64,000 nt of DNA from Candidatus Omnitrophota bacterium (GCA_043823435.1 JBDRAV010000003.1:32366-96365); one strand, 5' to 3'. Numbered from the stretch's first letter, positions 2,648-44,450 are shown. The notes: a model not told the origin generated them from the letters alone. Program-made: numbers and translations.

Positions 2648-2887
2648 AAGTGAGTGCACAATTTATGGAACGCCCCGCTACTCTAACTTAGGGTAACGGC
2701 GGGGTCCCGCCCTATATTACATGATTAGCGGGAAGTGAACATAAATTGTCTGCACGAACTTATACCTGACGCCTTGCTTTGTGGAACATAGCGTCAGGTA
2801 TTAATTCGCAGACGCTCGGAGACAGTAAAATTATGGACGCTATAACTTATTGCGCTACTTCGTAGCTCCATAAGTTATCTGCTCATT
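2648..2887. repeat. Composite mosaic element: two palindromic E1 units head to head around a central hairpin
   Basis: The left unit 2648-2760 is the AAGTGAGT.. variant and carries the 92-nt insert. The central hairpin is tacctgacgc/gcgtcaggta (2763-2772/2791-2800). The right unit 2806-2887 is inverted, with stem ataacttat/ataagttat (2842-2850/2870-2878) and terminus ctgctcatt. Together they fill the whole ribD-ribE spacer. Confidence 0.8.
2658..2749. ncRNA. Three-way-junction (TWJ) insert, copy 1 (candidate structured RNA or ssDNA element)
   Basis: Outer stem acaatttatg/cataaattgt. Hairpin CCCCGC..GCGGGG has a ~20-nt loop. Hairpin CCCGC..GCGGG has the conserved loop CTATATTACATGATTA. The junction carries GA/GA mismatches. 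Confidence 0.45.
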
Positions 2888-3974
2888 AAACATGCCCTTC
2901 TATCAGAAAGTCTTCGCCCATTCTCCTGAATCCGACTTCCTTTAATTTAAACGCTTTATCTATGCGCGCAACACCCTTGCCCATAACCGAGCTGATCGCA
3001 TCTTTTCCTCCTATGATTTTAGGACTGACAAAAAACAATACTTTATCCACGAGCCCTTCATCAAAGAGGCCTCCAATCAATGTCCCCCCGCCTTCAACAA
3101 GGATGCTGGTTATCTCAAGCTGCGCCAGCTTTTTCATCATATCTCTCAGATTTATCTGGCCTGATCTCTCCTTTACTTCCAATATCCTGGCCTTAGTGGA
3201 TAATACATTCCTATTCGCCGTCTCCTGCCCTGTTTTCACCGGTAAGGTAACGATTATTACGGAGCTATTACGGGAAAAGATACTGGTTTCTTCCGGAGTG
3301 CTCAACTGGCTGTCCACTATGATCTTAATAGGTTGTCTCCTGGAAAACCAGGCATCAAGCTTTGGATTATCTCTTAATACCGTATTCACGCCAACCATGA
3401 TCGCATCATAATGTACGCGCATCCGGTGTGCATAAAGGCGCGACACATCAGAAGTTATCCATTTCGAATTCCCGGTACGGGTTGCGATCTTCCCGTCCAG
3501 AGACTGCCCCACTTTAACCGTAACAAAAGGCATCTTGCGGGTAATATACTTAATAAAAGCTTCATTCAGTTTCTTTAATTTATCTGCAAGGAATCCCGTT
3601 TCGACCTTTATCTTCTGCGCCTTGAGTATCTTTATACCTTTACCGTTGTTGACGGGATTTGGATCAAGCATCCCCACAAAGACCCTTTTAATACCGCTCT
3701 TAATTATCTTATCTACGCATGGCGGAGTCCTCCCGAAATGCGCACATGGCTCAAGGGTCACGTAAAGATCTGCTCCTCTGGTTTGAAGCCCTGCGTCATC
3801 CAGGGCTAAAGATTCTGCATGAGGAAACCCAGCTTTATCGTGATAGCCACGGCCTATTATCCGGCCGTTCTTTACTACCACCGACCCGACGATAGGATTA
3901 GGGGAAGTCTTGTCTTTCCCTTTCAAAGCCAGCCTCAGGGCTAAATTCATAAAATATTCGTGGCCTCTAGGCAT
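2886..3974 (-). CDS. ribD: Bifunctional diaminohydroxyphosphoribosylaminopyrimidine deaminase / 5-amino-6-(5-phosphoribosylamino)uracil reductase
   Basis: N-terminal deaminase zinc motifs (FPHAE, LEPCAHFGRTPPC) plus a C-terminal RibD reductase domain; sits in rib operon context. Confidence 0.9.
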   Translation of the reverse strand: MPRGHEYFMNLALRLALKGKDKTSPNPIVGSVVVKNGRIIGRGYHDKAGFPHAESLALDDAGLQTRGADLYVTLEPCAHFGRTPPCVDKIIKSGIKRVFVGMLDPNPVNNGKGIKILKAQKIKVETGFLADKLKKLNEAFIKYITRKMPFVTVKVGQSLDGKIATRTGNSKWITSDVSRLYAHRMRVHYDAIMVGVNTVLRDNPKLDAWFSRRQPIKIIVDSQLSTPEETSIFSRNSSVIIVTLPVKTGQETANRNVLSTKARILEVKERSGQINLRDMMKKLAQLEITSILVEGGGTLIGGLFDEGLVDKVLFFVSPKIIGGKDAISSVMGKGVARIDKAFKLKEVGFRRMGEDFLIEGHV

Positions 3975-3978
3975 ATAT

Positions 3979-4800
3979 TTAAATCCTGTTTTGAGCTGCT
4001 TTCAACTTAACCACCAATTCATATGGAATTTTGACCGATCCTACCTTTACTTCTGGTTTAGCATTACCGTGGCAATCCGAACCTCCGGTAACCAATAAAT
4101 CATATTTTTTTGCTAAATTAAGATAGAAATTTATCATTGTACGGGTATATTCCGGATAATAAACTTCCAGACCCATGAGACCATAACCAACCAGTTCCGG
4201 TATCAACTCATCGCTATCAAGGGTATGCGGGTGAGCCAACACGGGTATCCCTCCTGCCCCCTTGATCAAGCCTATCGCTTCTATCGGTGGGAGCCTGAAA
4301 CCGCAGACATATGCGGGACACTTATCGCCGATGTATTTACGGAAGGCCTCTGCCGTAGAGCCAATAAGGCCTTCATTGACCATCGCCCTGGCAACATGGA
4401 GCCTGCCCACTGTGCCGTCTCCTGCAACATCAAACACGGAATCCGCATTGAAACGCAAGCCCATATCCTTAAGCCTGTCCGTTATCCTGTAGATACGCTC
4501 AATACGATTTTCTTTCAGAATATCTAACATGTCTAACAGGTTAGTATTTTTATAATCAATCAGGTATCCCAAAAGATGCACCTCTTTCCCGTCATGTTCT
4601 ACGGTAAGTTCTATGCCTGACAAGACTTCGATACCTTTTTCACCGGCCGCCTTTATCGCCGGCTCTACTCCGCAAACTGTGTCATGGTCGGTAACCGCGA
4701 TTGCCGCTAGAGCGCTATTTGAGCTCTCATTAACAAGTTCATCAGGAGCGTATGTCCCGTCCGAAAAGATAGTATGCAAATGCAGATCGGCAAATTTCAT
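3979..4800 (-). CDS. PHP-domain metal-dependent phosphoesterase (TrpH/YciV-like)
   Basis: MKFADLHLHTIFSDG start, later ..VTDHD.. and ..GGSDCHG.. metal ligands typical of the PHP family. Overlaps nusB by 4 bp. Confidence 0.75.
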   Translation of the reverse strand: MKFADLHLHTIFSDGTYAPDELVNESSNSALAAIAVTDHDTVCGVEPAIKAAGEKGIEVLSGIELTVEHDGKEVHLLGYLIDYKNTNLLDMLDILKENRIERIYRITDRLKDMGLRFNADSVFDVAGDGTVGRLHVARAMVNEGLIGSTAEAFRKYIGDKCPAYVCGFRLPPIEAIGLIKGAGGIPVLAHPHTLDSDELIPELVGYGLMGLEVYYPEYTRTMINFYLNLAKKYDLLVTGGSDCHGNAKPEVKVGSVKIPYELVVKLKAAQNRI

Positions 4801-5213
4801 TTTTCCTTTTTTAATTTTATTTTGTCAAGGATGCCATTGACGAACTTACTTGCCTCCAGGCTTGAATATTTCTTAGCCAATTCTACCGCTTCATTAATCG
4901 ATACCTTAAACGGTATATCATCGCGGAAGACAAGCTCGAAGCACCCCATACGCAAGATATTCCTATCCACTACCGCCATACGCTTAAGCTGCCAGTTGGT
5001 CGCATATCGAGCAATATTTTCATCGATGGCGTCCTTGTTTTCGATTACACCCTTGACTAACTCGCGGGTAAAATCCCTTATCTCATCGCTTGTATCATCT
5101 TCCCTGCGTGCCTGCCAAAAATTATTCAATGATTCATTATAATTGTCGTGCGTGATATCTGTCTGGTAAAGCACCTGCAGGGCGAATTCACGTGCTAAAG
5201 TACGTTTACGCAT
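4797..5213 (-). CDS. nusB: Transcription antitermination factor NusB
   Basis: 138 aa, REFALQVLYQ.. N-terminus and all-helical NusB layout; the classic position next to ribH. Confidence 0.85.
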   Translation of the reverse strand: MRKRTLAREFALQVLYQTDITHDNYNESLNNFWQARREDDTSDEIRDFTRELVKGVIENKDAIDENIARYATNWQLKRMAVVDRNILRMGCFELVFRDDIPFKVSINEAVELAKKYSSLEASKFVNGILDKIKLKKEK

Positions 5214-5359
5214 AAATGAGCAGACGGCTTACAGAGCATAGACTTACGTTTCAAGCGATGTAAATCGTAGACCGCAAGGCCGTCTGCGAGTTTATCCCGA
5301 CGAATGCGTAAAAGTTTTATTTAAAATTTTTACGCGGCATATGAGTCGGGATTAGGTTA
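5214..5359 (+). repeat. Mosaic element (E1 variant plus nested hairpin module)
   Basis: AAATGAGC at 5214-5221 directly abuts the nusB start. Long-range stem gcagacggc/gccgtctgc (5220-5228/5279-5287). Then nested stems TCCCGAC..GTCGGGA and GCGTAAAA..TTTTACGC. Ends ..attaggtta at the ribH stop. Confidence 0.7.
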
Positions 5360-5827
5360 TTATTTTATCTGTGTTAACAGGTTTACCATTTCAATGGCAG
5401 ATAAAGCAGCATCCCTGCCCTTATTGCCCTCTTTTGTGCCCGCACGCTCTACTGCCTGCTCAATGGTATCGGCGGTAATAATGCCGAAAATCACGGGCAG
5501 TCCGGTATCCAATGAAACCTTAGCGATACCCTTGGTTACTTCCGAGGCGATATAATCGAAATGCGGCGTTGAGCCCCGGATAACCGTACCCAGACAAATC
5601 AGGGCATCATATGACTTTGACTTAGCTAATTTCTGCGCAATCAAAGGAACTTCAAACGCCCCCGGGACCCATGTAACTGTCAGCTCATCGTTATCTGCCC
5701 CGTGCCTGACCAGCGTATTAAGACACCCGCTGACCAGTTCCTTGGTAATAAAATCATTGAAACGAGAAGCTATAACTGCGAATTTCCTGCCTTTGGCAAT
5801 TAAATTGCCCTCCCTTGTTTTTACCAT
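5360..5827 (-). CDS. ribH: 6,7-dimethyl-8-ribityllumazine synthase
   Basis: [28 protein letters not shown].. Start moved to the ATG at 5825-5827, which follows AAGGAGGG; the track start at 5851 lies inside the repeat. Confidence 0.9.
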
Positions 5828-5849
5828 CTTTCCCTCCTTAAATGAGCAC

Positions 5850-5942
5850 ATAACTTACGAGCACGTCCCGCTATTCTCATTTGAGATAACGGCGGGATCC
5901 CGCCCGATATTGCATGATGAGCGGGAAGTGCGAGTAAGTTAT
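5850..5942. ncRNA. TWJ insert, copy 2
   Basis: Outer stem ataacttac/gtaagttat, GA/GA junction, stem GCAC/GTGC, hairpin TCCCGC..GCGGGA (T-A replaces C-G of copy 1), hairpin CCCGC..GCGGG with loop CGATATTGCATGATGA. Confidence 0.45.
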
Positions 5943-6050
5943 TGTGCTAGCTTCTTCACTTTGTTCAGAACCGTCCACGATTCCTTAAGTAAAGCGAAGG
6001 ACGATTTATGCCCCACCTTATTAAGAACTATAAAAGAGCCCAATGAACGC

Positions 6051-6141
6051 ACAACTTAGCGAGCCCCCGCTCGGCTATTTAAAGCAAATGCAAGGTCCCG
6101 CCCGATAATCACATGATTAGCGGGAAGCAAAGCTAAGTTGT
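6051..6141. ncRNA. TWJ insert, copy 4 (first hairpin degenerate)
   Basis: Outer stem acaacttagc/gctaagttgt. The second hairpin CCCGCC..GCGGG with loop CGATAATCACATGATTA is retained. Confidence 0.35.
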
Positions 6142-6192
6142 ATGCGCGAATTTACATCCTACCTTATTAAAAGCCATAAAAGGATGTTAGGT

Positions 6193-7416
6193 TCAATCTA
6201 TATCCAGATTATGACCAAGCTTCTCCTTCTTGGTCTTAAGATAATTATAATTTTCCGGGTTAGGAGCGATCTCAAGAGGAAATCTCTCAACCACCACAAG
6301 GCCATAGCCTTCCAAGCCTACAATCTTGCGGGGATTGTTCGTAAGAAGCCTGATATTCTTAAGTCCCAGGTCCGCGAGAACCTGAGCCCCTATTCCGTAA
6401 TCTCTGAGGTCTGCCTTATGCCCCAATGCTTCATTTGCCTCCACAGTATCAAGACCCTTATCCTGCAAATTATAGGCCTTTATCTTCTCCGCAAGGCCTA
6501 TGCCACGGCCCTCCTGGCTCATATAAAGAATAACTCCTTTTTTTTGACGGCCGATGATCTCCATTGCCTTATCAAGCTGCTTGCCGCAATCACAACGCAA
6601 GGACCCGAATACATCTCCGGTAAGGCATTCGGAATGCACCCGAACAAGGGTTGCAGAATTATCAAGTTTACCCATAGTAAGCGCAATATGAAAATGCTTG
6701 TGGATCAGGTCCCTGTATAGTATCAATTCGTAAGTTCCGTATTCCGTAGGAAGTATAGTCCGGGAAACCCGTTCGATCAGTTTTTCAGAACGCCTTCGGT
6801 ATTGGATAAGATCAGCTATTGAACAGATCTTAAGGCGGTGCTCCTTGGAAAATTCCAACAACTGCGGGAGCCTTGCCATCGCGCCGTTATCATTCATAAT
6901 TTCACAGATTACTGCTGCAGGATAAAGACTGGCCATCTTCATAAGATCTACGGATGCCTCGGTATGGCCTGCCCTTACCAGAACTCCTCCTTTAAGCGCC
7001 CTCAGAGGAAAGATATGACCGGGCCTGACCAAATCTACCGGTTGAGAAGCGGGATTTACTAAGACCTCTATTGTACGCGAACGGTCATAAGCAGAAATAC
7101 CTGTAGTAATGCCTTTGGCTGCATCCGCCGAAATCATCCATGCGGTAGAAAAAAGGTCTTTTCTATTATATATATCTTTGCTTTCCAGCATCGGTTGCAA
7201 AGCTAACTCCTGTAATCTTTCATCTTCCATGGGCACACAGATCAGCCCGCGACCATGCTTTGCCATGAAGTTTATATCATCCGGCCTGGCAAAAGATGCA
7301 GCCATAACCAGATCCCCTTCATTCTCGCGGTCCTCATCATCCACGACAATAACCATCTTGCCGGCCTTTAAATCTTCCAGTATTTCAGGTATATTATTAA
7401 GCATAAGTGAAGACAT
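6193..7416 (-). CDS. ribBA: Bifunctional 3,4-dihydroxy-2-butanone-4-phosphate synthase / GTP cyclohydrolase II
   Basis: DHBP synthase half (MVIVVDDEDRENEGDLV) plus GTP cyclohydrolase II half (CLTGDVFGSLRCDCG, QEGRGIGL). The true start may be the ATG at 7402-7404, because codons 1-4 lie inside the repeat. Confidence 0.9.
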   Translation of the reverse strand: MSSLMLNNIPEILEDLKAGKMVIVVDDEDRENEGDLVMAASFARPDDINFMAKHGRGLICVPMEDERLQELALQPMLESKDIYNRKDLFSTAWMISADAAKGITTGISAYDRSRTIEVLVNPASQPVDLVRPGHIFPLRALKGGVLVRAGHTEASVDLMKMASLYPAAVICEIMNDNGAMARLPQLLEFSKEHRLKICSIADLIQYRRRSEKLIERVSRTILPTEYGTYELILYRDLIHKHFHIALTMGKLDNSATLVRVHSECLTGDVFGSLRCDCGKQLDKAMEIIGRQKKGVILYMSQEGRGIGLAEKIKAYNLQDKGLDTVEANEALGHKADLRDYGIGAQVLADLGLKNIRLLTNNPRKIVGLEGYGLVVVERFPLEIAPNPENYNYLKTKKEKLGHNLDID

Positions 7417-7639
7417 AATTTATGGAGCGCCCCGCTACTACATTTTGAGATAACGGCGGGGTCCCGCACCATATTACATGATTATCGGGAAACGAACATA
7501 AATTATTTGTCTGAACTTATACCTTGCGTTTTACCTTGTAAAACGCAAGGTATTAATTCGCAGGCGCTGATAGACAGTAAAATAATAAACGCTATAACTT
7601 ATGCCGCTACTTCGTAGCTCCATAAGTTATCCGCTCATT
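7405..7639. repeat. Composite mosaic element, same architecture as 2648-2887
   Basis: Left unit with TWJ insert. Central perfect 14-bp hairpin taccttgcgtttta/taaaacgcaaggta (7520-7533/7539-7552). Inverted right unit with ataacttat/ataagttat (7594-7602/7622-7630), ending ccgctcatt. Confidence 0.8.
7415..7506. ncRNA. TWJ insert, copy 3
   Basis: Outer stem ataatttatg/cataaattat, hairpin CCCCGC..GCGGGG, hairpin CCCG..CGGG with loop ..CCATATTACATGATTAT. Confidence 0.45.
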
Positions 7640-7670
7640 AAAAAAAATAAACCCGAAGATAATCTTCGGG
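7640..7670 (-). terminator. Intrinsic terminator, expression platform of the FMN riboswitch
   Basis: Minus strand reads CCCGAAG-AUUAU-CUUCGGG followed by UUUAUUUUUUUU. The 5' arm is complementary to the riboswitch P1 5' strand (UAAUCUUCGGGG), giving the usual antiterminator alternative. Confidence 0.8.
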
Positions 7671-7685
7671 CGATAGAAAAACTTA

Positions 7686-7885
7686 TTAATCCTCTCCTAT
7701 CTGGACTATCCACCCAATTCAATTTGATGAATCGGTGTCCGCTGCTGCGGCACCCGATCCTATCTGATGAATCGGTGTCCGCTGCTGCGGAACCATCGGC
7801 CCCGGAATGTCACCGGGTCTGCCCCATTTTGTGGGGCTCGCGGGCTCTACCGCCGGTAAGGAATTCCACCTTCCCCGAAGATTAA
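7686..7885 (-). promoter_or_regulatory. FMN riboswitch (RFN element), unusually long
   Basis: Minus strand reads CUUCGGGGAAGGUGGAAUUCCUUACCGGCGGUAGAGCCCGCGAGCC..GGUGACAUUCCGGGGCCGAUGGU..AUAGUCCAGAUAGGAGAGG. This matches the conserved RFN core. P1 is UUAAUCUUC/GAGGAUUAA. It lies upstream of ribBA. Confidence 0.9.
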
Positions 7886-7896
7886 TGTATTTATAA

Positions 7897-7924
7897 ATTA
7901 TAGCAAAAAAACTTACCTTGTCAA
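7897..7924 (-). promoter_or_regulatory. Sigma70-type promoter TTGACA-16-TATAAT for the FMN riboswitch and rib operon
   Basis: On the plus strand, tgtcaa at 7919-7924 and attata at 7897-7902. The predicted start is a few nt before riboswitch P1. Confidence 0.65.
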
Positions 7925-7946
7925 TAGAATTAAAAGGATTTATAAT
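7918..7946 (+). promoter_or_regulatory. Sigma70-type promoter TTGTCA-17-TATAAT for the CinA-domain gene (near-leaderless)
   Basis: ttgtca at 7918-7923 and tataat at 7941-7946. Only 8 nt separate the -10 box from the ATG at 7955, and there is no SD. Confidence 0.6.
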
Positions 7947-7954
7947 AGGGTCTT

Positions 7955-8416
7955 ATGGAACCCGTTATAAATAAAATACATGAATTTCTCTTAAAAAACA
8001 AGAAAACCATTGCCGTAGCAGAATCCTGCACGGGAGGTGTCTTATCAGGAATGCTCACCAAGACTCCGGGGAGTTCCGGGTATTTCATCCTGGGGATAGT
8101 GGCGTATAGCAACGCGGCAAAGGAGAAGATCCTAAAGATACCTCACCGGCTCATCGCGAAAAAAGGGGCGGTTTCCAGAGAAGTGGCCGAGGGCCTGGCT
8201 CATTCCATAAGAAAGCTTTCTGGAGCTGACTTCGGCATAGGCATAACCGGCATAGCAGGCCCTGCAGGCGGATCAAAAGAAAAGCCGGTAGGTACTGTAT
8301 TTATTGCGGTAGAATCAAAAAATAGAAAAATCTGCCAGCAATTCAACTTCACCGGCACCCGCTCCGCCATACGCAAGAAATCTGCTTTAAAAACATTGGG
8401 ATTGTTAAAAAACTAA
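7955..8416 (+). CDS. CinA C-terminal domain protein / nicotinamide-nucleotide amidohydrolase (PncC-like)
   Basis: 153 aa; ..TIAVAESCTGGVLSGMLT..GIGITGIAGPAGG.. is typical of the CinA/PncC domain. Confidence 0.8.
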   Translation: MEPVINKIHEFLLKNKKTIAVAESCTGGVLSGMLTKTPGSSGYFILGIVAYSNAAKEKILKIPHRLIAKKGAVSREVAEGLAHSIRKLSGADFGIGITGIAGPAGGSKEKPVGTVFIAVESKNRKICQQFNFTGTRSAIRKKSALKTLGLLKN

Positions 8417-8426
8417 TGTAATTATT

Positions 8427-8591
8427 TAGCGGGTAGTAAGGCGTGTTTCGAGCAGCATGTAGTTTATGTGAGCGGCCAAGGCCCGCCCGCTATTTTATAT
8501 ATCAGTAAGAGCGAACAGAAACTTCAAGCGAGGATTTCCTCTGTGGGGAAAGCCGAGCGGTGCTGCGAGAAATACGCATTAACACCCGCTA
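8427..8591 (+). ncRNA. Candidate structured 5' leader element (family 2), copy A, upstream of thpR
   Basis: Closing stem TAGCGGGT/ACCCGCTA (8427-8434/8584-8591). Second stem TCGAGCAGC/GCTGCGAGA has a tandem G.A/A.G (8448-8456/8562-8570). Internal hairpins GGCC-AA-GGCC and GGATTTCC..GGGAAAGCC. A second copy lies at 58567-58733. Confidence 0.5.
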
Positions 8592-8599
8592 AAATAAAT

Positions 8600-9597: not shown

Positions 9598-9608
9598 AAA
9601 AAGGAGGG

Positions 9609-10251: not shown

Positions 10252-11511
10252 TCATGACAATGCCTTTCCCACCAGGTCATATTCCAGGGTATCCGTGATT
10301 TCCGCTTTCACAAATCCTCCGGTCTTTAATACCCTGTCGGAGTCCACATAAACCATGCCGTCTACTTCAGGGGCATCGTACTGGCTACGCCCTAAATAAT
10401 AGCCTTTCCCTTTCTCTTCTATTAAAACATCAATGACCTTACCCACGAAGCTCTCATTCACATCCCGGGATATCTCCTGTTGCCGCAGCATAAGGATATC
10501 AAAACGCTCTCTTTTTATCCGTTCAGGGACTTGATCCTTAAAATCATACGCCCTCGTACCGCCTTCCCGGGAATAGATAAATGCACCCAGCCTTTCAAAC
10601 TTCACGTCTGCAATAAAATCCAGTAATTCCTTGAAATCATCGTCTGTCTCGGAAGGAAATCCTACTATTAACGAAGTACGTATTGCGACATTCGGGACCT
10701 TCCTCCTTATTTTGTCGATAACCCGCAAAATAGCGTTTTTGTCCACCTGCCTATTCATCATGCCCAGTATCCGGTTATTTATGTGCTGTAATGGCAGATC
10801 AATGTATTTGCAGATCTTAGGTTCGTTTTTAACCAAATCCAGCAATTCATCTGTGATCCGGGTAGGATATAAATATAAGAGCCTTATCCAGCCGATACCG
10901 GGACTCCTGCCGATTATTTTCTTTAAAAGCCCGGGCAATCCTCTGGTCCGTCCTAAATCCATGCCGTAACCGGTAATATCCTGTCCAACAATATTGATCT
11001 CCGACACCTTGTCTTTATTGAAACTCTCTATTTTACGTAGTATGGAACCTGCATCAAGGCTGGTTAGCCTTCCTTTGATTTTAGGAATAATGCAATAGCT
11101 GCAGTTATTTACGCAACCCTCGCATATCTTCAGGTATGCGTAATGCCGCGGGGTAAGCCGGAAATCAGCAAGGTTGTGGTTCAAAGAAACCTTCCCCACA
11201 AATGCGTCTACTTCCGGAAGCTCCTTATGCAATTCGTCTCTGTAACGCTGGCTTAGGCAACCATAAATGATTATCTTCTTAAGTTTGCCCTTTCTCTTTA
11301 AATCAATGAGTTCCAGTATGGTATCTATTGATTCTATCCTGGCATCTTCTATAAAAGCGCAGGTGTTCACTATCGCCGTATCTGCCTTATCCATCTCTAC
11401 GATACGATGGCCCTTTGAAGCGAGCCTTCCGAGGATATTCTCGGAATCCACCAGGTTTCTCGGACACCCCAGGCTCAGAACCCCTATTTTATTCTTCCCT
11501 TTTACTCTCAT
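10252..11511 (-). CDS. rimO: Ribosomal protein S12 methylthiotransferase RimO (MiaB-family radical SAM)
   Basis: N-terminal SLGCPRNLVDSE, radical-SAM CSYCIIP, C-terminal TRAM-like domain. Confidence 0.75.
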   Translation of the reverse strand: MRVKGKNKIGVLSLGCPRNLVDSENILGRLASKGHRIVEMDKADTAIVNTCAFIEDARIESIDTILELIDLKRKGKLKKIIIYGCLSQRYRDELHKELPEVDAFVGKVSLNHNLADFRLTPRHYAYLKICEGCVNNCSYCIIPKIKGRLTSLDAGSILRKIESFNKDKVSEINIVGQDITGYGMDLGRTRGLPGLLKKIIGRSPGIGWIRLLYLYPTRITDELLDLVKNEPKICKYIDLPLQHINNRILGMMNRQVDKNAILRVIDKIRRKVPNVAIRTSLIVGFPSETDDDFKELLDFIADVKFERLGAFIYSREGGTRAYDFKDQVPERIKRERFDILMLRQQEISRDVNESFVGKVIDVLIEEKGKGYYLGRSQYDAPEVDGMVYVDSDRVLKTGGFVKAEITDTLEYDLVGKALS

Positions 11512-20420: not shown

Positions 20421-22112
20421 TCATCTAAAAAAGATATCCTTCCCTTGTAATAAAATGCTCCCCCTGCCATGCCAATCATCAATCTTTGGAGTATAAACCA
20501 TATCAAAACTACCGGCGTTCATCATGCTGTCTTTAAAACTGCCCATGCCAAACCCTATCGCCTCAAGGGTAATATCTCCGTCTGTAACCCAGAATTTCAA
20601 AGTATCCCTGCTTAAAATTTGCGGTTCCCCCTTGAGTTGAAGTCCTCTGGTATAAAACAAAGGTTCGGGGTTGCCTGTGCCAAAAGGCTCAAGGCCGTTG
20701 AATTCGCCTATGACTTGCGCGTTAATATCCGACAAAGATAACTCCATATCTACATCTATACTGGGTAGCAAATCTTTCAAAACCATCTTTTCTTTTGCCA
20801 GACGGTTAATCTTATCCCTGAAATCCGCTATGTTATCACTGGTTATGATAAGGCCTACGGCGTGGCTGTGGCCCCCGAATGTCTTAAGATAATCCTTACA
20901 TTCCAGAAGCGCCTCAAAGAGATGGAAATTCTTTATGGAGCGCCCGGAACCTTTACAGATACCTCCTATTTTAGATATAACGATAGTCGGCCTGTAGAAT
21001 TTATCCGCGAGTTTTGAAGCCACTATCCCTAAAACTCCCTGATGCCAATCCTCCTTGGCGATGACAATAATCTTGTGTTCCTTAAAATTGATCTCCCGGT
21101 CGATTAAATCATGCGCCTCTTCCATTATCTTCTCCTCTATCTTCTGGCGCTGGCGGTTAAGCTCTTCTATCTTCCTGGCAATAGTCAATGCCTCGTTATC
21201 ATTACGGCTCAGGAGCAGATTTAACGCAATCTCGGCTGTATCCACGCGGCCGCTGGCATTGATACGGGGAGCCAATATAAAACTTACAAAACCAGAAGTT
21301 ATCTTTTTACCTTTGATGCGGCTGGTCTCTATAAGGGCCTTGATACCGGGCCTTTCAGAATGCGTTAGTTTTACCAATCCTTCCTTGACGATAACGCGGT
21401 TCTCACCGGTAAGCGGGGCAACGTCAGCGATAGTCCCCAGAGAAACCAAATCCAGGTCATCGAGCAACTTCTTGCCGGTAATAGCCTGACAGAGCTTATA
21501 AGCCACGCCTACCCCGGCCAGATCCCGGTATTTATAACGGCTACCTTTTATTTTAGGGTTTATGACGGCCGAGGCGCAAAGCGCCATATCGTGATTTGCC
21601 GGTTCATGGTGGTCAGTCACTATCACATCTATATTATGCCGCCTTAATTCTTTTATCTCCTCATTATTACCCGTTCCGCAATCTACCGTAATCAGAAGCG
21701 ATATGCCTTTCTGCCTGGCTAATTGAATACTCTTCCTGTTTAACCCGTAACCATCATTTATTCTATGCGGGATATAATGGGTTGTTTCCACTCCTACCAT
21801 GGCAAGCGTTTCCTTTAACAGCGCAAGCGCGGTCAGGCCGTCAACATCGTAGTCCCCGAATATCATAACCTTTTTTTTATTTTTAGCCGCGTCCTTGATA
21901 ATATTGACGGCCTTTTGCATATCAACAAACAAAAACGGGTCTAACATATTGTCCGGAACAGGCATCAGAAATTCTTCTGCTTCTTCTGGATCATTAATGC
22001 CGCGGTTTATCAATAACTGGGCCAGGATATTAGAAATATCAAGCTCTCTGCTTAAAATGTTCTGCAGGTGGGATTTGGGTGAAGGGATATTTAATATTTT
22101 GTGGCTGCGCAT
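20421..22112 (-). CDS. recJ: Single-stranded-DNA-specific exonuclease RecJ
   Basis: DHH motifs (IFGDYDVDG, VDCGTGN, VIVTDHH) and a DHHA1 domain (GGHSHAVG). Confidence 0.9.
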   Translation of the reverse strand: MRSHKILNIPSPKSHLQNILSRELDISNILAQLLINRGINDPEEAEEFLMPVPDNMLDPFLFVDMQKAVNIIKDAAKNKKKVMIFGDYDVDGLTALALLKETLAMVGVETTHYIPHRINDGYGLNRKSIQLARQKGISLLITVDCGTGNNEEIKELRRHNIDVIVTDHHEPANHDMALCASAVINPKIKGSRYKYRDLAGVGVAYKLCQAITGKKLLDDLDLVSLGTIADVAPLTGENRVIVKEGLVKLTHSERPGIKALIETSRIKGKKITSGFVSFILAPRINASGRVDTAEIALNLLLSRNDNEALTIARKIEELNRQRQKIEEKIMEEAHDLIDREINFKEHKIIVIAKEDWHQGVLGIVASKLADKFYRPTIVISKIGGICKGSGRSIKNFHLFEALLECKDYLKTFGGHSHAVGLIITSDNIADFRDKINRLAKEKMVLKDLLPSIDVDMELSLSDINAQVIGEFNGLEPFGTGNPEPLFYTRGLQLKGEPQILSRDTLKFWVTDGDITLEAIGFGMGSFKDSMMNAGSFDMVYTPKIDDWHGRGSILLQGKDIFFR

Positions 22113-22201
22113 AAATGAGCAGATAACTTATGGAGCCACGAAGTGGCGATATAAGTTATAACGTCCATCATTTTATCTGTCTATCAGTGTCTGCGAATTT
22201 A
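22111..22201 (+). repeat. E1 palindromic element exactly filling the argS-recJ spacer
   Basis: TAAATGAGC..GCGAATTTA termini. Stem ataacttat/ataagttat (22123-22131/22151-22159) with inner GCCAC-GAA-GTGGC. The left end touches the recJ ATG; the right-end TTA is the argS stop codon. Confidence 0.8.
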
Positions 22202-30442: not shown

Positions 30443-30533
30443 TTATCCTTTCATAGTTTTAATGAGGTGGGATATAAATTCGCACACATAACTTACTCAC
30501 GCCATAGCGTTCGTAAGTTATGTGCTCATTTAT
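30443..30533 (-). repeat. E1 plus module B element filling the trpD-trpC spacer (sense orientation)
   Basis: Minus strand reads ATAAATGAGCACATAACTTAC..GTAAGTTATGTGTGCGAATTTATATCC..GGATAAATG. Stems at 30485-30496/30513-30524 and ATCC/GGAT (30445-30448/30470-30473). The trpD TAA lies inside the terminus. Confidence 0.8.
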
Positions 30534-31543
30534 CCCCTCAACGAATACTCTTTAAGCTGCTCCAGTTTCTTTAATGCCTTCCCTGAATCTATGGATTCAG
30601 CAGCCAGGCCCATGCCGTCTTTTATGGATTCTGCTTTGTCTGCAACATATACGGCAGCCGCAGCATTCAATAAGACCATATCGCGGTGCGCCCCTGGTTT
30701 TCCTTCCAGGATATCAAGCGCTATCTTCACATTATCGGCAATTGCCCCGCCCTTTAAATCCTCTAATTTTGCCCTCTTCATACCGAAGTCTTCGGGGAAT
30801 ATTTCATAACTCTTAAGTTTTCCTTTCTGCTCCTCAGAAATATATGTTTTTGCGGTCGTAGTTATCTCATCGAGCCCATCTTCGCTATGTACGAATAAAG
30901 CATGCGCTGTACCGAGGTTCCGTAATACTTCGGCTAATATTCCTGTCCAACGGCGGTCGTATACGCCGACCAGCTGGTGCGTTGCTCCCGCAGGGTTGGT
31001 CAAAGGTCCTAAAATATTGAATATGGTCCTGGTTGGTATCTGTTTCCTCGCGGGCATAGCATATTTCATCGCCGGGTGTAGATTGGGCGCAAATAAAAAT
31101 GCTATTCCAATATCAGACAGGCATCTTTCTAGTTTCTCTTTAGGCATATTAATATCAACGCCTAATGCCTCTAATATATCTGCGCTCCCGCAGCAGCTGG
31201 TTACACAACGGTTACCGTGCTTGGCAACAGTAATACCGGCTCCGCTAGCCACAAAAGCCACGACCGTAGAAACATTAAAGACACCTTTCTTGTCTCCCCC
31301 TGTCCCGCAGGTATCCAGGAGCGGTTCTTTATCAGTATGGATTCTGGTAGCATGCCTGCGCATAACAGAAACCGCTGCAGTGACCTCCTCGCTTGTCTCG
31401 CCTTTGCTGCTTAACGCAGACAAAAAAGAAACGATCTCTGCAGTCTCGGATTTTCCGGTCATGATCTCTTCCATAACCACCTGCATCTGGAGGCTGGATA
31501 AGTCGCTGCCTTTTGCTAATATTCCCGTTGCTTCCTTTATCAT
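30530..31543 (-). CDS. trpD: Anthranilate phosphoribosyltransferase
   Basis: ..LDTCGTGGDKKGVFNVST..KHGNR.. motifs. Confidence 0.9.
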   Translation of the reverse strand: MIKEATGILAKGSDLSSLQMQVVMEEIMTGKSETAEIVSFLSALSSKGETSEEVTAAVSVMRRHATRIHTDKEPLLDTCGTGGDKKGVFNVSTVVAFVASGAGITVAKHGNRCVTSCCGSADILEALGVDINMPKEKLERCLSDIGIAFLFAPNLHPAMKYAMPARKQIPTRTIFNILGPLTNPAGATHQLVGVYDRRWTGILAEVLRNLGTAHALFVHSEDGLDEITTTAKTYISEEQKGKLKSYEIFPEDFGMKRAKLEDLKGGAIADNVKIALDILEGKPGAHRDMVLLNAAAAVYVADKAESIKDGMGLAAESIDSGKALKKLEQLKEYSLRG

Positions 31544-33362: not shown

Positions 33363-34153
33363 TATCTCTCTCGTTTCTTTGCGACAACGACTCTGTCTAA
33401 ACCGCTATAATCCTTAACCCACTCCATTATCTCAAAATATCCTGATTTTTGAAGAATATTTTTTATGGCCTTTTTCTGATCAAAGCCGGTCTCCATAATC
33501 AGAAATCCGCCCTCCCTTAAATAACGCGGGGCTTCTTTGATTATGCGGCGGTAAAAAAACAGACCATCCTGCCCTGCGTCTAAAGCAATACGCGGTTCAT
33601 ACCCGACTTCAGGCTGCAAAGTCTCGATTTCTGCTATAGGGATGTAAGGAGGGTTGGATATGATTAGTTCATAGTTCATGGTTCTTAGTTCATGGCCAGA
33701 AAATATATCGCTCTGCAAAAAATTAATTTCTACTTTATTTAAAATTGCGTTTTGCCGCGCAATTGCTAATGCCTTATGCGAAATATCGGTTGCTGTGATT
33801 TCTGTATCTTGAAGAAATTTCGCCAGACTAACAGCTATACATCCTGAACCCGTACCTATATCTAATATGCTATGAACCTTGAACCCTGAACTATGAATAA
33901 CTTTTATGGCAGTTTCTACCAGTATTTCTGTTTCGGGACGGGGTATCAATACGTCTCTGTTAACCATGAAACTAAAACCCATAAACTCCGCTTTGCCCAG
34001 TATATACTGGATGGGTTCGCCCTTGGCCCTTCTCTTTAATACGCCACAGACAAAACGAGAGCTGGTTTCATCTAAAACTGCATCCCTGTTCAGATACAGC
34101 GAGGCCCTGTCACAATTTAATATATCGGTAAATAATAACTCTGCTTCATTCAT
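33362..34153 (-). CDS. prmC: Release-factor glutamine N5-methyltransferase PrmC
   Basis: SAM motif [11 protein letters not shown] and catalytic NPPY; adjacent to prfA. Confidence 0.9.
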
Positions 34154-35203
34154 CAGCTTTGCTTTCCGCTGCCTTTATCAACGCCTCCGAAAACTCTTCC
34201 AGATCGCCTTCCATTATCGCCTCTAATTTATGCAGGGTAAGATTTATCCTGTGGTCGGTCACGCGCCTATCGGGAAAGTTATAGGTGCGTATCTTCTCGC
34301 TGCGGTCGCCCGAACCTATCTGCGAGCGCCTCTGTTGTGATCTCTTCTTGGACTCCTCCTGTTGTTTTGCATCCATGAGCCTCGCGCGCAGTATCCTCAT
34401 CGCCTTAGTCTTATTCTTTAATTGCGAACGCTCATCCTGACATGCTACCGCCGTGCCCGTAGGCAAATACGTAATCCTTACTGCCGAATCGGTCTTCTGC
34501 ATATGCTGCCCTCCGGGGCCAGAAGACCTGTAAGTATCTATTTTTAGATCCTTTGGTTCAATAACAAAATCTACTTCTTCTGGTTCTACCAATACGGCTA
34601 CTGTTGCCGTTGAGGTATGAATCCTGCCCTGCGCCTCAGTGGTAGGGACGCGCTGCACGCGGGCACGCCGCTTTCAAACCTCAGGCGCTTATACGCATCT
34701 TTTCCTTTTACGCTGAACACTATTTCCTTAAAGCCGCCCAATTCAGTCTGGTGCGCAGACATGGGCTCTACGGACCATCCTTTGCTGGCGGCGTACTTTG
34801 TGTAGATACGATAAAGGTCAGCGGCAAATAGCCCTGCCTCCATGCCTCCTGTACCCTGGCGTATCTCAACCATTACATCCCTGCCGGATGTTTCATCTTC
34901 GCCTGCTAATATGACTTTCAGCTTCTGCTGGAGGTCCGCTTTCTTATTCCTCAAATCACTAAGTTCGGCTCTTGCTAACGCCAGAAAATCCTCGTCGTGC
35001 TTCTCGTTAAGCGTTTTTTCCAGGCTATGTGTCTCAGCATCTATCTTCTTGTGTTCACGGAATAAAGATACAGTTTCTTTCAAATCTGACAATTCTTTCG
35101 CATACCTGTTATACTGCTCCCTGTCAGATACGGTTTCATAAGAAGCAAGGAGCTGCTCCAGCTCCTGATAACGCTTCTCTATCTTCTCTAATTGCGTGAA
35201 CAT
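34146..35203 (-). CDS. prfA: Peptide chain release factor 1, split into two frames by a 1-nt frameshift near 34655-34668
   Basis: The N-terminal ORF (34598-35203) ends ..RLRFESGV. The C-terminal ORF (34146-34658) begins [15 protein letters not shown] and carries [15 protein letters not shown] (GGQ). Together they make a normal RF1. Confidence 0.85.
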
Positions 35204-35473: not shown

Positions 35474-35484
35474 TTGTTCCTCCT

Positions 35485-35585
35485 TTAAATGAGCGCATAA
35501 CTTACGGAGCGCGAAGTGCGACGTAAGTTATTTGCGCGAATTTACACCCTTCCTTATTAATAAATATAAAAGGGAGTTAGGTTTA
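35485..35585 (+). repeat. E1 plus module B element filling the rho-rpmE spacer
   Basis: TTAAATGAGCGCATAACTTACGGAGCGCGAAGTGCGACGTAAGTTATTTGCGCGAATTTAC, then the hairpin CCCT..AGGG with loop TCCTTATTAATAAATATAAA. Ends ttaggttta on the rho stop. Confidence 0.8.
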
Positions 35586-37444: not shown

Positions 37445-38810
37445 ACAACTTGATGTACTTTTTGGCGGACTCCTTCCAGGAAAAATTATTCTGCATGGCA
37501 TTGCGGATGAGCCCGGCCCATTTCTTTTTATCCTTGAACGCCTTTACTGCCTTATCGACCATATTGATCAAACCTTCTTTTTTATATTTATCGAATACAA
37601 ATCCGTCAGCCGCAGTCACGGTATCGGCTAGCCCGCCGGTCTTAAAGACAAGCGGTATGGTGCCGTAACTCATGCTGATAAGTTGGCCCAGTCCGCAGGG
37701 TTCATATTTTGAGGGCATAAGGAATATGTCTGAACCCGCGTATATCTTGTGTGCCAGGGAATCGTCAAATTTCAGATGCAAGGATATAATCTTAGGGTAT
37801 TTCTTTACGATACTCTCAAGAATAGTGTGGTATTTTAATTCTCCAGTTCCCAGGATGACCAGCTGTAGCTCCATATTGCAGATCTTCTCTATTGCGGCTG
37901 CCAGTATATCAAACCCCTTCTGTTCAGCCAGGCGCGAGACGATGCCAAAGAGCGGAATATTCTTTTTAACCGGCAATTTGCAGATCCCCTGCAGGTCCTC
38001 CTTATTCTCGCCCTTATCCTGCGTCTTCTCTAAAGAGTAGTTCTTTGCAATAAACTTATCGCTCTTCGGGTTCCAGATAGAATAATCCAGACCGTTCAAT
38101 ATACCGAAAAGATCGGATTTGCGTTTAGTCAGTATCCCTTCCATTCCGTAACCGAACTCTTTAGTCTGTATCTCTTTGCTGTAAGTAGGGCTGACGGTAT
38201 TGATAAGGTCAGCGAATACTATACCTGCCTTTAATAAGTTGATCTTTCCGTAATATTCGAGCATCTCCATATTAAAGAATTTCCAATCCAGGCCCAGTTT
38301 CGAAAACTCCTCTTTTGGAAATATCCCCTGGTAACCTATATTATGTATTGTGAATAAGCACCTTGTATCCTTATAGAAGATATCATCTTTGTATATAGTC
38401 TTTAGATAAACGGGTATAAGGGCGCTCTGCCAGTCGTGGCAATGGATGATATCCGCTTTAAAACCTATTTCTTTTAACAGCTCCAGCGTCCTCCTGCTGT
38501 AATAAGAGAACCTGTCCAGATTATCCTTGTGATCTCCGGCCTTATCGCCGTATAAGCCGTCGCGGTTGTAATATCCGTCGTTCTCGATAAAATACACCAT
38601 CGTATTCTTACCTGTAACCGTATAAGAGATATCCGCTTTTAACCTTTGAAGTTTAAACTTGGGCTCCTGGATGGATTTGTATCTGGGCATAACGATTATC
38701 GCCTCCTGACCCAATGACTCTAATTCTAAAGGCAATGCCCCGGCTACATCGGCTAACCCTCCGGTTTTAGCGAATGGTACAACTTCAGAAGCACATATAG
38801 CTATTTTCAT
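37422..38810 (-). CDS. glgA: Glycogen synthase (ADP-glucose type)
   Basis: MKIAICASEVVPFAKTGGLADV.. N-terminus; GT5 family size. Confidence 0.9.
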   Translation of the reverse strand: MKIAICASEVVPFAKTGGLADVAGALPLELESLGQEAIIVMPRYKSIQEPKFKLQRLKADISYTVTGKNTMVYFIENDGYYNRDGLYGDKAGDHKDNLDRFSYYSRRTLELLKEIGFKADIIHCHDWQSALIPVYLKTIYKDDIFYKDTRCLFTIHNIGYQGIFPKEEFSKLGLDWKFFNMEMLEYYGKINLLKAGIVFADLINTVSPTYSKEIQTKEFGYGMEGILTKRKSDLFGILNGLDYSIWNPKSDKFIAKNYSLEKTQDKGENKEDLQGICKLPVKKNIPLFGIVSRLAEQKGFDILAAAIEKICNMELQLVILGTGELKYHTILESIVKKYPKIISLHLKFDDSLAHKIYAGSDIFLMPSKYEPCGLGQLISMSYGTIPLVFKTGGLADTVTAADGFVFDKYKKEGLINMVDKAVKAFKDKKKWAGLIRNAMQNNFSWKESAKKYIKLYEKARSR

Positions 38811-41347: not shown

Positions 41348-41529
41348 TTAGGCTACCATTAACCAAACATGGAAATTAATGAGGCGTGACGAATATGTAG
41401 TTTATTTATGGTAAAAATGCGATATTCGATTAGGTTAGCTTCCTCTAAAGCAGTTTGGAAGGCCTGCTTGTTATTACCTGTGTTCATTATATAAGATATA
41501 AGAAAAAACTAAAAAAAGCAAGAAAAAAA

Positions 41530-41814
41530 TTAAATGAGCAGACAACTTACGGAGCGTTAGCGAAGTAAGTTGTAGCGAAGCGTCTGCGAATTTACACCAT
41601 ACTTTATTAATAACTATAAGCGGTGCTAAATGAGCCCACAACTTACGAACACGCCCCGCTCCTCTTAACTAGAATAAAGGCGGGGTCCAGCCTCTATCTT
41701 ACATAATCAGCTGGAAGTGCGAGTAAGTTGTAGCGAAGCGTCTGCGAATTTACCCCACAGCTTATTAATAATCACAAAAGGGGGATAGGATTGATGCCTA
41801 CAACTTACATTCAC
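41530..41814 (+). repeat. Mosaic element string downstream of acsB (E1, module B, E1+TWJ, module B, partial E1)
   Basis: AAATGAGC at 41532 and 41628. Stems acaacttac/gtaagttgt at 41542-41550/41565-41573 and 41638-41646/41723-41731. GCGAATTTAC at about 41586 and 41745. Confidence 0.8.
41638..41731. ncRNA. TWJ insert, copy 5
   Basis: Hairpin CCCCGC..GCGGGG. The second hairpin changes from CCCGC/GCGGG to CCAGC/GCTGG, a double compensatory change. Loop TCTATCTTACATAATCA. Confidence 0.45.
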
Positions 41815-43995: not shown

Positions 43996-44008
43996 ACCAT
44001 CTCTCCTT

Positions 44009-44335
44009 TAAATGAGCCCACAACTTACGGAACAACGTGAACGTAAGTTGTTTGGGCGAATTTACCTCCCACCTTATTAATAAACAATAAAAGGAGGATA
44101 AGTTATATCCCATAACTTACGGAACGCAAGTGAACGTAAGTTGTTTGGGCGAATTTACCTCCCACCTTATTAATAAACAATAAAAGGAGGATAAGTTATA
44201 TCCCACAACTTACGGAACAACGTGAACGTAAGTTGTTTGGGCGAATTTACCTCCCACCTTATTAATAAACAATAAAAGGAGGATAAGTTATATCCCACAA
44301 CTTACGGAACGCAAGTGAACGTAAGTTGTTTGGGC
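44009..44335 (+). repeat. Tandem array, 3.5 units of 92/93 bp (E1 hairpin plus module B hairpin), ABAB pattern
   Basis: Units start at 44017, 44109, 44202 and 44294. Units 1 and 3 have loop AACAACGTGAA; units 2 and 4 have AACGCAAGTGAA. The last unit is truncated after TTTGGGC. Confidence 0.9.
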
Positions 44336-44450
44336 TAGTTCTTCGCTTTGCTTCGGAATCATCCGCAATCACCAAATATAGCAACGGATGAATTTACTTC
44401 GCTTGCTTCCAAGCATTTTGGATGCGAAGCAAATCCAAGACTCTAAGCTT
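44336..44450 (+). repeat. Module C copy plus terminal hairpin
   Basis: ctagttcttcgctttgcttcggaatCATCCGcaatcaccaaatatagcaaCGGATGaattta parallels 5947-6010, with CGTCC/GGACG replaced by CATCCG/CGGATG. It is followed by the hairpin CTTCGC..TCCAA-GCATT-TTGGA..GCGAAG. Confidence 0.65.

Follow-up and report, generated by a model that had tools for sequence, protein, structure and literature searches.

A family of modular hairpin repeats between housekeeping genes in Omnitrophota-type genomes

A 64-kb stretch of DNA from a Candidatus Omnitrophota bacterium (the window) contains 16 copies of an imperfect palindrome, E1, each of about 55-135 bases, in nine spacers that sit exactly between housekeeping genes and also hold modules B, C and H and a nested twin-hairpin module. 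E1 is an undescribed REP/BIME-like mosaic repeat family. The exact fit of the element into gene gaps, its recurrence in about 49 assemblies and its presence or absence at the same junctions identify it as an undescribed mobile repeat rather than a product of chance. We consider it probable that E1, together with the modules that accompany it, forms a family of non-coding mosaic hairpins that spread by copy-and-paste, are comparable to REP/BIME (REPIN) and BOX elements and are recognised as DNA hairpins. Omnitrophota are uncultured bacteria with small, compact genomes, known almost solely from metagenome bins.

The basic unit of E1 is an imperfect hairpin of 52-66 nt with the consensus TTAAT-GA-GCNCA-YAACTTAY-(G)GA-[variable apex]-GA-RTAAGTTR-(1-2 nt bulge)-TGNGC-GA-ATTAA and the ends TTAATGAGC and GCGAATTAA. 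The parts named in the original prediction are all present: the termini TAAATGAGC and GCGAATTTA, the AACTTAY/RTAAGTT stem with its bulge of 1-2 nt, the tandem G.A/A.G mismatches beside the apical helix, module B (8 copies, repeat family D3), module C (2 copies) and the TTTTACTGTC insert. E1 folds into a hairpin on both strands, with z-scores of -2.5 to -6.5. Seven of the 18 stem pairs vary on both sides, 95% of the cells are paired, and none of 500 shuffles matched this level of covariation. Extra hairpin modules nest in the apex and in the bulge, while there is almost no variation among the roughly 49 assemblies in the termini AATGAGC/GCGAATT or in the two G.A motifs. Only the GCAGA subtype has the motif pair GTAG...CGTC, which lies within its bulge. 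In its complete form the element consists of two inverted E1 copies around a linker hairpin (E1 > linker hairpin < E1), and both AATGAGC ends face outward. A small-ORF reading of E1, as in MIRU, is ruled out by in-frame stops, which can be read directly from the sequence in every frame. The G.A motifs are not those of a K-turn, the bulge being on the wrong strand and only 1-2 nt long, and the likeness of the apex and stem to a hammerhead or to group II domain V fails on the absence of the core motifs. The attC reading was also rejected: the ends misfit the RYYYAAC / GTTRRRY core, the flanks are syntenic housekeeping genes, and no integrase lies in the window.

Two doublets occur in the window, at 2648-2893 and 7405-7645. 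The left half of the first is an E1 of the AAGTGAG/AATTTAT subtype (2648-2775, plus strand; repeat families D4, D5 and D8), which abuts the ribE start codon (CAT at 2645-2647) and carries the twin-hairpin module in its apex (2671-2740). A linker hairpin, CCTGACGC...GCGTCAGG (2776-2811), joins it to an E1 with a TTTTACTGTC-containing insert in the bulge (2797-2893, minus strand; 26.8 bits in the covariance model), and the ribD stop codon TAA (2886-2888) falls within the TTAATGAGC end of this copy. The second doublet, in the rib leader, starts with an AAGTGAA-subtype E1 (7405-7530, plus; D4 and D5) that has the twin hairpin in its apex and abuts the ribBA start (CAT at 7402-7404). Its linker hairpin (7518-7556) shows compensatory differences from that of the first, and its right half, again with the TTTTACTGTC bulge insert (7548-7645, minus; 38.7 bits), begins right after the U-tract of the FMN-riboswitch terminator, in a position and orientation common to L115 and 13 metagenome relatives. 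The doublets are collinear over about 245 nt (2645-2893 against 7402-7645), and the similarity stops exactly at the element ends (D5, D11); whole composites have been duplicated within one genome.

Between the doublets, a degenerate E1 (5213-5294, plus; 11.7 bits) abuts the nusB ATG (CAT at 5211-5213) and is orthologous to the ribH-nusB copy of L148. It is followed by a long H hairpin, TCCCGACGAATGCGTAAAAGTTTT...AAAATTTTTACGCGGCATATGAGTCGGGA (5295-5359, plus), and the H module adjoins E1 in many genomes. Next to the ribH Shine-Dalgarno and start lies an E1 (5839-5950, plus; D4, D6-D8) with a twin-hairpin apex (5864-5935), succeeded by module C with its CTAGCTTCTTC...CGTCC/GGACG hairpin (5945-6003, plus), module B (6004-6036, plus; D3), an E1 whose long apex combines a variant first hairpin with a TCCCGCC...GCGGGA hairpin (6040-6155, plus), and a module B with a TTAGGTT tail that ends at the ribBA stop (6150-6193, plus; D2 and D3).

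Single copies occupy the argS-recJ spacer, which a copy identified with the covariance model fills exactly (22108-22201, plus), having the argS stop TAA (22199-22201) in one end and the recJ ATG (22110-22112) at the other, and the trpD-trpC gap (30471-30536, minus; 66.8 bits), where the trpD stop lies within the TAAATGAGC end. A canonical short E1 (35482-35548, plus; 77.5 bits) adjoins the Shine-Dalgarno and start of rpmE at a position orthologous to that of a copy in L019; a module B with the TTAGGTT tail (35540-35585, plus; D2 and D3) extends from it to the rho stop. Further along, an E1 of the GCAGA subtype whose bulge contains a GCGAAGC mini-hairpin (41527-41598, plus; 47.3 bits) alternates with module B (41590-41622, plus; D3), an E1 with a twin-hairpin apex whose second hairpin covaries (TCCAGC/GCTGGA; 41625-41755, plus; D7 and D8) and another module B (41748-41791, plus; D2 and D3). 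The last spacer holds a tandem array of three and a half units of E1 plus module B with a period of 92-93 nt (44005-44334, plus; D1; E1 at 44005-68, 44095-161, 44188-253 and 44294-334), which begins at the Shine-Dalgarno of the ACS/CODH beta gene. Module C in its CATCCG/CGGATG form and a further hairpin (44335-44450, plus) reach from there to the stop of the upstream oxidoreductase gene.

The count of 16 originally proposed agrees with ours: the covariance model R1 finds ten E1 copies in the window at E<0.001 and the weak one at 5213-5294, and five long-apex copies (2648, 5839, 6040, 7405 and 41625) were detected through repeat families D4, D7 and D8 and a regular expression. The described element was present in all nine of the spacers first listed, and its portrayal as a modular mosaic palindromic family of the BOX/BIME/Correia kind is supported. 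That it occupies almost every long spacer was an overstatement, as E1 is found in 9 of the 20 window spacers of at least 60 nt, in 9 of the 15 within 2648-44450, and in none beyond 44.5 kb. The terminal 9-mer TAAATGAGC alone, with one mismatch allowed, occurs at chance level (23 matches against 22.9 expected), and the E1 signal resides in the longer arm; the left-arm pattern AATGAGCNNAYAACTTA has 11 matches with up to two mismatches in the window against 0.16 expected.

E1 is not species-specific. Scanning related genomes with the covariance model revealed abundant further copies outside the window: 100 in 65 loci (436 kb) from about 49 assemblies, mostly labelled Omnitrophota, and 73 matches in 596 kb of rib-operon relatives. 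Around ribH the density in relatives is about 1 per 8 kb, and the window has 16 per 64 kb. The same model found no match in 52 control loci (365 kb) that carry a 17-mer of the element by chance. All 120 matches listed to the 17-mer in viral contigs were likewise due to chance, none having the E1 architecture, and BLAST found no E1 in plasmid or phage records. The sequence appears to be the family's own, as first supposed: at the Rfam gathering score only the FMN riboswitch and tRNA pass in the window, with E1 matching no family, a search at E up to 10 over 5200-6200 gave nothing meaningful, and a search for literature on Omnitrophota repeats found no relevant paper. The consensus is almost constant among genomes with only 46-68% protein identity, and the rho-rpmE, rib-leader and argS-recJ sites are orthologous between species. 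A young, genome-specific MITE does not fit a consensus shared by about 49 assemblies, with some sites orthologous between species.

Orthologous spacers are empty in some relatives and filled in others, which bears out the expected insertion polymorphism. At each rib junction of 80 relatives, most genomes have a gap of -8 to +20 nt, and a patchily distributed subset has one of 100-400 nt. The loci L125 and L139, about 95% identical, are at least eight hairpin indels apart, the ribD-ribE doublet included, and hold different elements at the same junction; L123 and L132 share 99% identity beyond a 76-nt insert, on its downstream side. Insertions survive only where the flanks keep their function: in gaps between a stop and the next Shine-Dalgarno or ATG, at tRNA 3' ends, behind a riboswitch terminator and in an aptamer loop. 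Flanking direct repeats amount to at most 4 nt (TAAA) at the FMN aptamer site; the window and L120 both have ATGTT at ribD-ribE, and further repeats are possibly TAAAGG at ribBA-ribH, 13 nt around a hairpin insert of L125 and 19 nt at tRNA-Arg. Among the sites compared, neither a TA/TAA target duplication, as originally suggested for checking, nor one of constant length (0-4, 5, possibly 6, and 19 nt) could be established.

The base pairing of E1 points to complementarity at the DNA level. Of 2909 stem pairs in 173 copies from many genomes, 2827 (97%) are Watson-Crick, 38 are G.T and 44 are A.C; with G.T no commoner than A.C, pairing of DNA accounts for the stems better than selection on RNA. 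The G.T wobbles had been thought to exist on one strand only, but in the 173 copies they are not skewed with respect to either the element strand or the mRNA strand, and strand assignment from wobble pairs had to be abandoned for want of asymmetry. One E1 strand is distinguished by two tandem G.A motifs and G..A loops, and in 12 of the 16 window copies the AATGAGC strand is indeed the antisense one with respect to the neighbouring genes. A single-stranded DNA substrate, one of the explanations offered for the strand difference, thus retains the support of the Watson-Crick stems, the conserved G.A motifs and the G..A loops, and loses that of the G.T asymmetry. The other, an independent antisense transcript, is unlikely: E1 lies inside operons (rib, trp), and doublets carry both orientations. 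Promoter and terminator consensus matches between 35.2 and 45 kb were at chance level, with none in the elements.

No mobilising gene accompanies the repeats in the DNA covered. The 58 window ORFs lack transposase, HUH or recombinase Pfam domains, in agreement with the original prediction, and include no RAYT (Y1) gene. In about 1 Mb of loci, E1-flanked ORFs comprise no mobilising gene and no recurrent transposase, nor was there an ORF-bearing '+...-' pair of E1 copies resembling an insertion sequence. Plasmids, phages and the 120 viral-contig matches listed contained no autonomous insertion sequence with E1 ends.

Under the reading we favour, the selected property would be intrastrand DNA pairing with sheared G.A pairs on the AATGAGC strand. 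An enzyme acting in trans from a gene elsewhere probably recognises E1 in the form of a single-stranded DNA hairpin; a RAYT or an IS200/IS605-like HUH enzyme would be its best analogue. The element may ride passively in operon mRNAs, keeping its flanks together, because it folds on itself. Some observations count against this reading: the orthologous sites shared between species exceed the conservation expected of decaying selfish DNA, and the near-unchanged consensus across 46-68% protein identity, the inconsistent flanking repeats and the failure to find a mobilising gene are further difficulties. It is conceivable, if on balance unlikely, that E1 is the DNA partner in an old, vertically transmitted association of repeat and enzyme common to the sampled Omnitrophota genomes, similar to REPIN-RAYT with a different, putative hairpin-recognising protein, and that its hairpins were co-opted as operon punctuation. 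Such hairpins would hold the stop of one cistron close to the start of its neighbour and perhaps offer a boxA-like GCUCAUUAA site, which would account for the conserved sequence and the start-codon orientation at about 50-70% protein identity.

The placement of E1 could also reflect selection by the host. Single copies turn the AATGAGC end towards the downstream start codon in 22 cases against 4, which hints at selection linked to gene expression and counts against purely selfish spread. In 16 of 38 cases the hairpin is followed within 0-4 nt by an ATG that lacks a Shine-Dalgarno, and the ribBA Shine-Dalgarno (GGGGAG) is seen in empty leaders and missing from filled ones. Such features favour E1 being mainly a host-selected cis element of operon mRNAs, with duplication spread as a secondary matter, as does its location inside operons (rib, trp, rho-rpmE) and the retention of positions and sequence between distant species. 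It might act as punctuation cleaved by an RNase III-like enzyme or as protection of 5' ends, couple stop to start, or load an antitermination factor; the mRNA-sense end of E1, GCUCAUUAA, may resemble boxA (GCUCUUUAA), and the loci examined held no rRNA leader for comparison. We nevertheless regard a primary cis function as improbable. On the mRNA strand, 29 G.U stand against 25 A.C pairs, unlike selected RNA helices, and in most copies the mRNA is antisense to the structurally favoured strand, which bears the G.A pairs and G..A loops. Any one junction is without E1 in most relatives, yet their operon persists; a Shine-Dalgarno is missing from about half of the window genes in any case; and E1 also abuts tRNA 3' ends in relatives' loci and interrupts the FMN aptamer as a doublet at GGTAA|AGTCC in L124, L142 and L193.

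The orientation of doublets raises a different possibility. Between tandem genes, '+-' doublets number 19 and '-+' doublets 0. The doublet might accordingly be a TIR-MITE mobilised in trans by a DDE transposase, for example one with the TAA/TTA target of IS5/Harbinger or the TA target of IS630, the E1 arms serving as terminal inverted repeats. The AATGAGC ends, always outward, would suit this, as would the TAA/TTA-rich element ends with stop codons inside, the aptamer insertion, which can be written GG[TAA]-ATGAAG...CTCAT-[TAA]AGTCC, and the ATGTT duplication at ribD-ribE; IS5-family transposases have been reported in Omnitrophota. However, each arm is a covarying hairpin with outermost pairs inverted rather than direct (position 6-65: UA 38, AU 38, CG 6), which binding to terminal repeats does not need, no constant duplication length emerged, single copies and tandem arrays are common, and no autonomous partner occurs among the loci examined, so that we hold this origin to be decidedly unlikely. 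Spread without a dedicated enzyme, by template switching or slippage at stalled hairpins and gene conversion, agrees with flanking duplications of 0 to 19 nt, the tandem arrays and the different elements of L125 and L139, but is very improbable as it leaves unexplained both the near-invariant termini and G.A motifs of about 49 assemblies and the strict outward orientation of doublets.

Among known repeats, E1 comes closest to the REP/BIME/REPIN elements that accompany RAYT in Enterobacteria and Pseudomonas. REP elements number hundreds of copies per genome, and E1 is probably high-copy too. Both are extragenic imperfect palindromes that form inverted pairs around a linker (in E1, the 19 '+-' doublets), join into mosaics with other motifs, sit within operons where they are co-transcribed, and persist vertically for long periods; recognition as a DNA hairpin would be a further likeness. 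REP units measure 20-40 nt and bear a terminal GTAG or CGTC tag, whereas E1 is 52-66 nt long without such a tag, carries a pair of tandem G.A motifs, expands at defined sites, is common to about 49 assemblies rather than one species group and has no RAYT linked to it in the DNA covered; a RAYT is a cognate single-copy Y1 gene, usually with the repeats on either side. BOX elements of Streptococcus pneumoniae share the modularity (boxA-boxB(n)-boxC) with variable module number, the intergenic hairpins, the non-coding nature and the lack of a known mobiliser, but not the sequence, and their module order is fixed, whereas E1 modules nest in loops and take both orientations. Correia elements (NEMIS) of Neisseria are likewise inverted-repeat elements of about 100-150 nt at gene borders, co-transcribed into long mRNA hairpins, but have plain 26-bp TIRs, a TA duplication and an IHF site and are genus-specific, whereas the arms of E1 are hairpins and no constant duplication emerged. 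Mycobacterial MIRU are intercistronic and overlap stop and start codons, as E1 does, but are direct repeats with small ORFs, while E1 has none. RPE of Rickettsia enter coding 3' ends in frame, as E1 does at ribH of L163, but are mostly intragenic. With TIR-MITEs, E1 shares terminal inverted repeats, the outer arms of a doublet being inverted copies, and the lack of coding capacity. Small dispersed repeats of heterocystous cyanobacteria, reportedly treated by Elhai et al. in 2008, are said to be tiny hairpins nested in each other and in structured-RNA hairpins, and to show presence or absence at orthologous sites, as E1 does; their sequences and phylum differ from those of E1.

A conserved hairpin repeat of this kind affects the assembly and binning of Omnitrophota genomes and the calling of gene starts and stops: stop codons lie inside E1, and ORF finders push starts into it (for example at 5851 and 7416). 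E1 can serve as a sequence marker that, among the loci tested, is confined to Omnitrophota-type assemblies. That an operon, an aptamer loop or a tRNA flank can harbour E1 and stay intact demonstrates tolerance of self-folding inserts. The family provides a second independent case, after REPIN-RAYT, for very long persistence of a repeat family; a cognate enzyme, should there be one, would be a new DNA enzyme specific for hairpins.

The core hairpin repeat E1 is present at all nine loci named in the original prediction; the bare 9-mer terminus occurs at chance frequency. The 17-nt left arm AATGAGCNNAYAACTTA is found 11 times in the window with up to two mismatches, against 0.16 occurrences expected. 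A covariance model (R1), built on an alignment of 42 short copies (A1), recovers ten window copies of E1 with E<0.001 as well as a degenerate one, and five further copies with a 70-90-nt apex insert were located through the window repeat families D4, D7 and D8 and a regular expression. In total, 16 E1 hairpins are spread over nine spacers. The predicted occupation of almost every long spacer was overstated: of the 20 spacers that are 60 nt or longer, 9 hold E1, and none is found past 44.5 kb. The companion hairpin modules B (eight copies) and C (two copies) are as predicted, and a long H hairpin occupies 5295-5359. E1 and B are repeated in tandem at 44005-44334. The E1 doublets at the ribD-ribE junction and in the rib leader are collinear along about 245 nt, with nested modules common to both and compensatory differences in the linker hairpin, and their similarity stops at the element borders.

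The nested twin-hairpin module of the window (2671-2740, 5864-5935, 7428-7497 and 41651-41722) carries TCCCGC...GCGGGA twice, with a compensatory variant TCCAGC/GCTGGA at 41680. More generally, the twin hairpin (two TCCCGN...NCGGGA joined at GGGATCCC) acts as an insert in its own right. It is found in locus L139 of another assembly (4391-4631 and 11115-11189), where it lies between CTGAT and GCGTT and is absent from L125, and also in FMN riboswitch variable stems and E1 apices.

The E1 consensus is TTAAT-GA-GCNCA-YAACTTAY-(G)GA-[apex]-GA-RTAAGTTR-(bulge)-TGNGC-GA-ATTAA. Among 42 sequences, 95% of the alignment cells are paired, both sides change at 7 of 18 pairs, and the observed covariation was reached by no shuffle. 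Either strand folds well, as DNA and RNA alike. Two tandem G.A/A.G motifs are confined to the AATGAGC strand, as the prediction held for G.A pairs, and so are the G..A-type apical loops (GAA, GCAA, GTTA, GATA). The same asymmetry does not extend to the wobbles, for which it had also been claimed: the stem pairs of 173 copies comprise 2827 Watson-Crick, 44 A.C and 38 G.T pairs, the last two without bias by element or mRNA strand. G.U is tolerated far better than A.C in selected RNA helices. Unlike in such helices, G.T and A.C are equally rare in E1, which suggests that it is the DNA whose complementarity is maintained.

E1 is not confined to a single genome. A 17-mer scan of species-representative genomes returned at least 117 loci, and the E1 model places 100 copies in 65 of the 117 listed, supplying the further copies that the original prediction proposed to seek. 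Among the matches listed, these 65 loci derive from about 49 assemblies, including 42 labelled Omnitrophota or Omnitrophica, a few Planctomycet*, one Syntrophomonadaceae and one "bacterium". The model found no copy in the remaining 52 listed loci, which match the 17-mer by chance, nor in 120 viral contigs among the matches listed. Plasmid and phage collections contained no match, Rfam no family and literature searches no description; the family therefore appears undescribed. E1 is real, and its spread is wider than could be seen from the window.

In this context all genes have housekeeping roles and run on the minus strand: ribBA-ribH-nusB-PHP-ribD-ribE, headed by an FMN riboswitch; argS-recJ; the trp genes; rho-rpmE; polA; and the CODH/ACS and folate genes. 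The elements are intra-operonic and fit their spacers exactly. One TTAA/TAAA end contains the upstream stop codon (ribD, argS, trpD), and within 0-15 nt of the AATGAGC end comes the next start codon or the Shine-Dalgarno sequence that serves it. A Shine-Dalgarno sequence is missing from about half of the window genes, so ATGs abutting E1 need no special initiation mechanism. Mechanical ORF calls (starts 5851, 7416 and 2659) push ribH, ribBA and ribE into an E1 arm; the true starts are likely 5827, 7404 and 2647. At 34146-35203, two overlapping minus-strand ORFs divide release factor 1 between them (PCRF domain 34598-35203, RF-1 domain 34146-34658); a frameshift, recoding or an error of assembly could account for this.

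E1 also adjoins tRNA 3' ends. Beside the minus-strand tRNA at 1592-1666, five tandem 64-65-nt units (1675-1982) each bear a TACTGC...GCAGTA hairpin and share the motif TTTTACTGTC with E1 bulge inserts. A different repeat, about 170 nt long and closed by TTTAGCGGG...CCCGCTAAA with arms 76-82% complementary, occurs twice in the window (8425-8593, plus strand; 58567-58714, minus strand). It is syntenic in relatives (L125 3830-3925; L139 3680-3855, with extra hairpin inserts), matches no Rfam family and looks like a structured RNA gene.

Orthologous spacers were compared for empty sites, as had been proposed, in 80 metagenomic relatives (RibH identity 72-90%). In most genomes each rib junction is empty, measuring -8 to +20 nt; in a patchy set it spans 100-400 nt, often with E1. 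Eight or more hairpin indels, the ribD-ribE doublet among them, distinguish L125 from L139 (about 95% identical), and in two further cases the same junction holds different elements. L123 and L132 share 99% identity downstream of a 76-nt insert, which provides both a GTG start and a Shine-Dalgarno sequence. A small element, CCCGCCCTTCC...GGAAGGGCGGG, sits in the ATGA stop/start overlap of nusB-PHP in L121, L123, L127, L139 and L144, with L132 empty; it brings a new GTG start together with the Shine-Dalgarno sequence AGGAAGG, and a copy of TGA(G) stands at either side. Another family of about 160-250 nt, GATTACACAGATT...TCGCCACAATACTTGGCGAATCCGCCATGCTTTGTGGCGGA..., occupies two L139 junctions (2930-3093, 7836-8089) that lack it in L125.

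Other sites are shared between species. The rho-rpmE site is orthologous in L019, the ribH-nusB site in L148, and the position directly past the riboswitch terminator in L115 and 13 relatives. At argS-recJ, L047 has only the start-proximal half of E1 (6755-6774), with the argS stop in GTAAGTT. In L163 (near 4197-4370), the ribH 3' end continues in frame into E1 and so gains 13 codons encoded by the element. Three genomes carry a complete doublet within the FMN aptamer, at GGTAA|AGTCC (L124 4372-4548; L142 2558-2724; L193 4311-4475), followed by an intact aptamer remainder and terminator. The Rfam FMN model mis-closes P1 of a doublet-bearing aptamer on the first E1 arm and scores 49.5 bits, below the gathering score.

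Between co-oriented genes, independent loci comprise 19 doublets with AATGAGC ends outward (+-) and none of the opposite arrangement (-+), and 22 single copies in minus against 4 in plus orientation, which directs the AATGAGC end towards the downstream start. From these counts, the full element is E1 > linker hairpin < E1, and a single copy is the half nearer the start, bearing a B or H hairpin towards the stop. The way single copies are oriented to start codons, the constancy of the sequence across about 49 assemblies and its retention at orthologous sites argue against a purely selfish element; a host role in operon expression is, on balance, unlikely.

The outermost E1 pair covaries as well (UA, AU, CG), so the element ends belong to the stem and are not a target duplication. 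Flanking duplications could span 0-4 bases (TAAA) at the aptamer insertion and TAAAGG in one ribBA-ribH case, and ATGTT...ATGTT brackets the ribD-ribE doublet in the window and L120. Upstream of tRNA-Arg, an E1+H insert lies between the two copies of a perfect 19-nt direct repeat, ATGCGCCTGTAGCTCAATT, which copies the 5' end of the tRNA (first 19 nt region) and is conserved in two species (L007 4836-4854 and 4985-5003; L017 1404-1549, minus strand). Where the evidence is clearest, in two cases, it is precisely the duplication that leaves both flanking genes intact, and survivorship may therefore shape the observed cases. That E1 is a conventional MITE mobilised by a DDE transposase is quite improbable, less credible even than the host role.

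E1 is best read as a REP/BIME-like, DNA-level hairpin repeat family, copied within genomes now or formerly. It is tolerated only where its flanks stay functional and, because it folds on itself, would be carried passively in transcripts. The conserved termini, G.A motifs and strict doublet polarity suggest a conserved trans-acting partner that would read the hairpin in single-stranded DNA, in the manner of RAYT and IS200/IS605 enzymes. A gene for such a partner was not found, and none of the 58 window ORFs carries a transposase, HUH or recombinase domain, as the prediction had held for transposases. In automatic annotation of such genomes, starts beside these repeats will often be mis-set. The E1 family is a newly found addition to the mosaic palindromic repeats of bacteria, a class already known.
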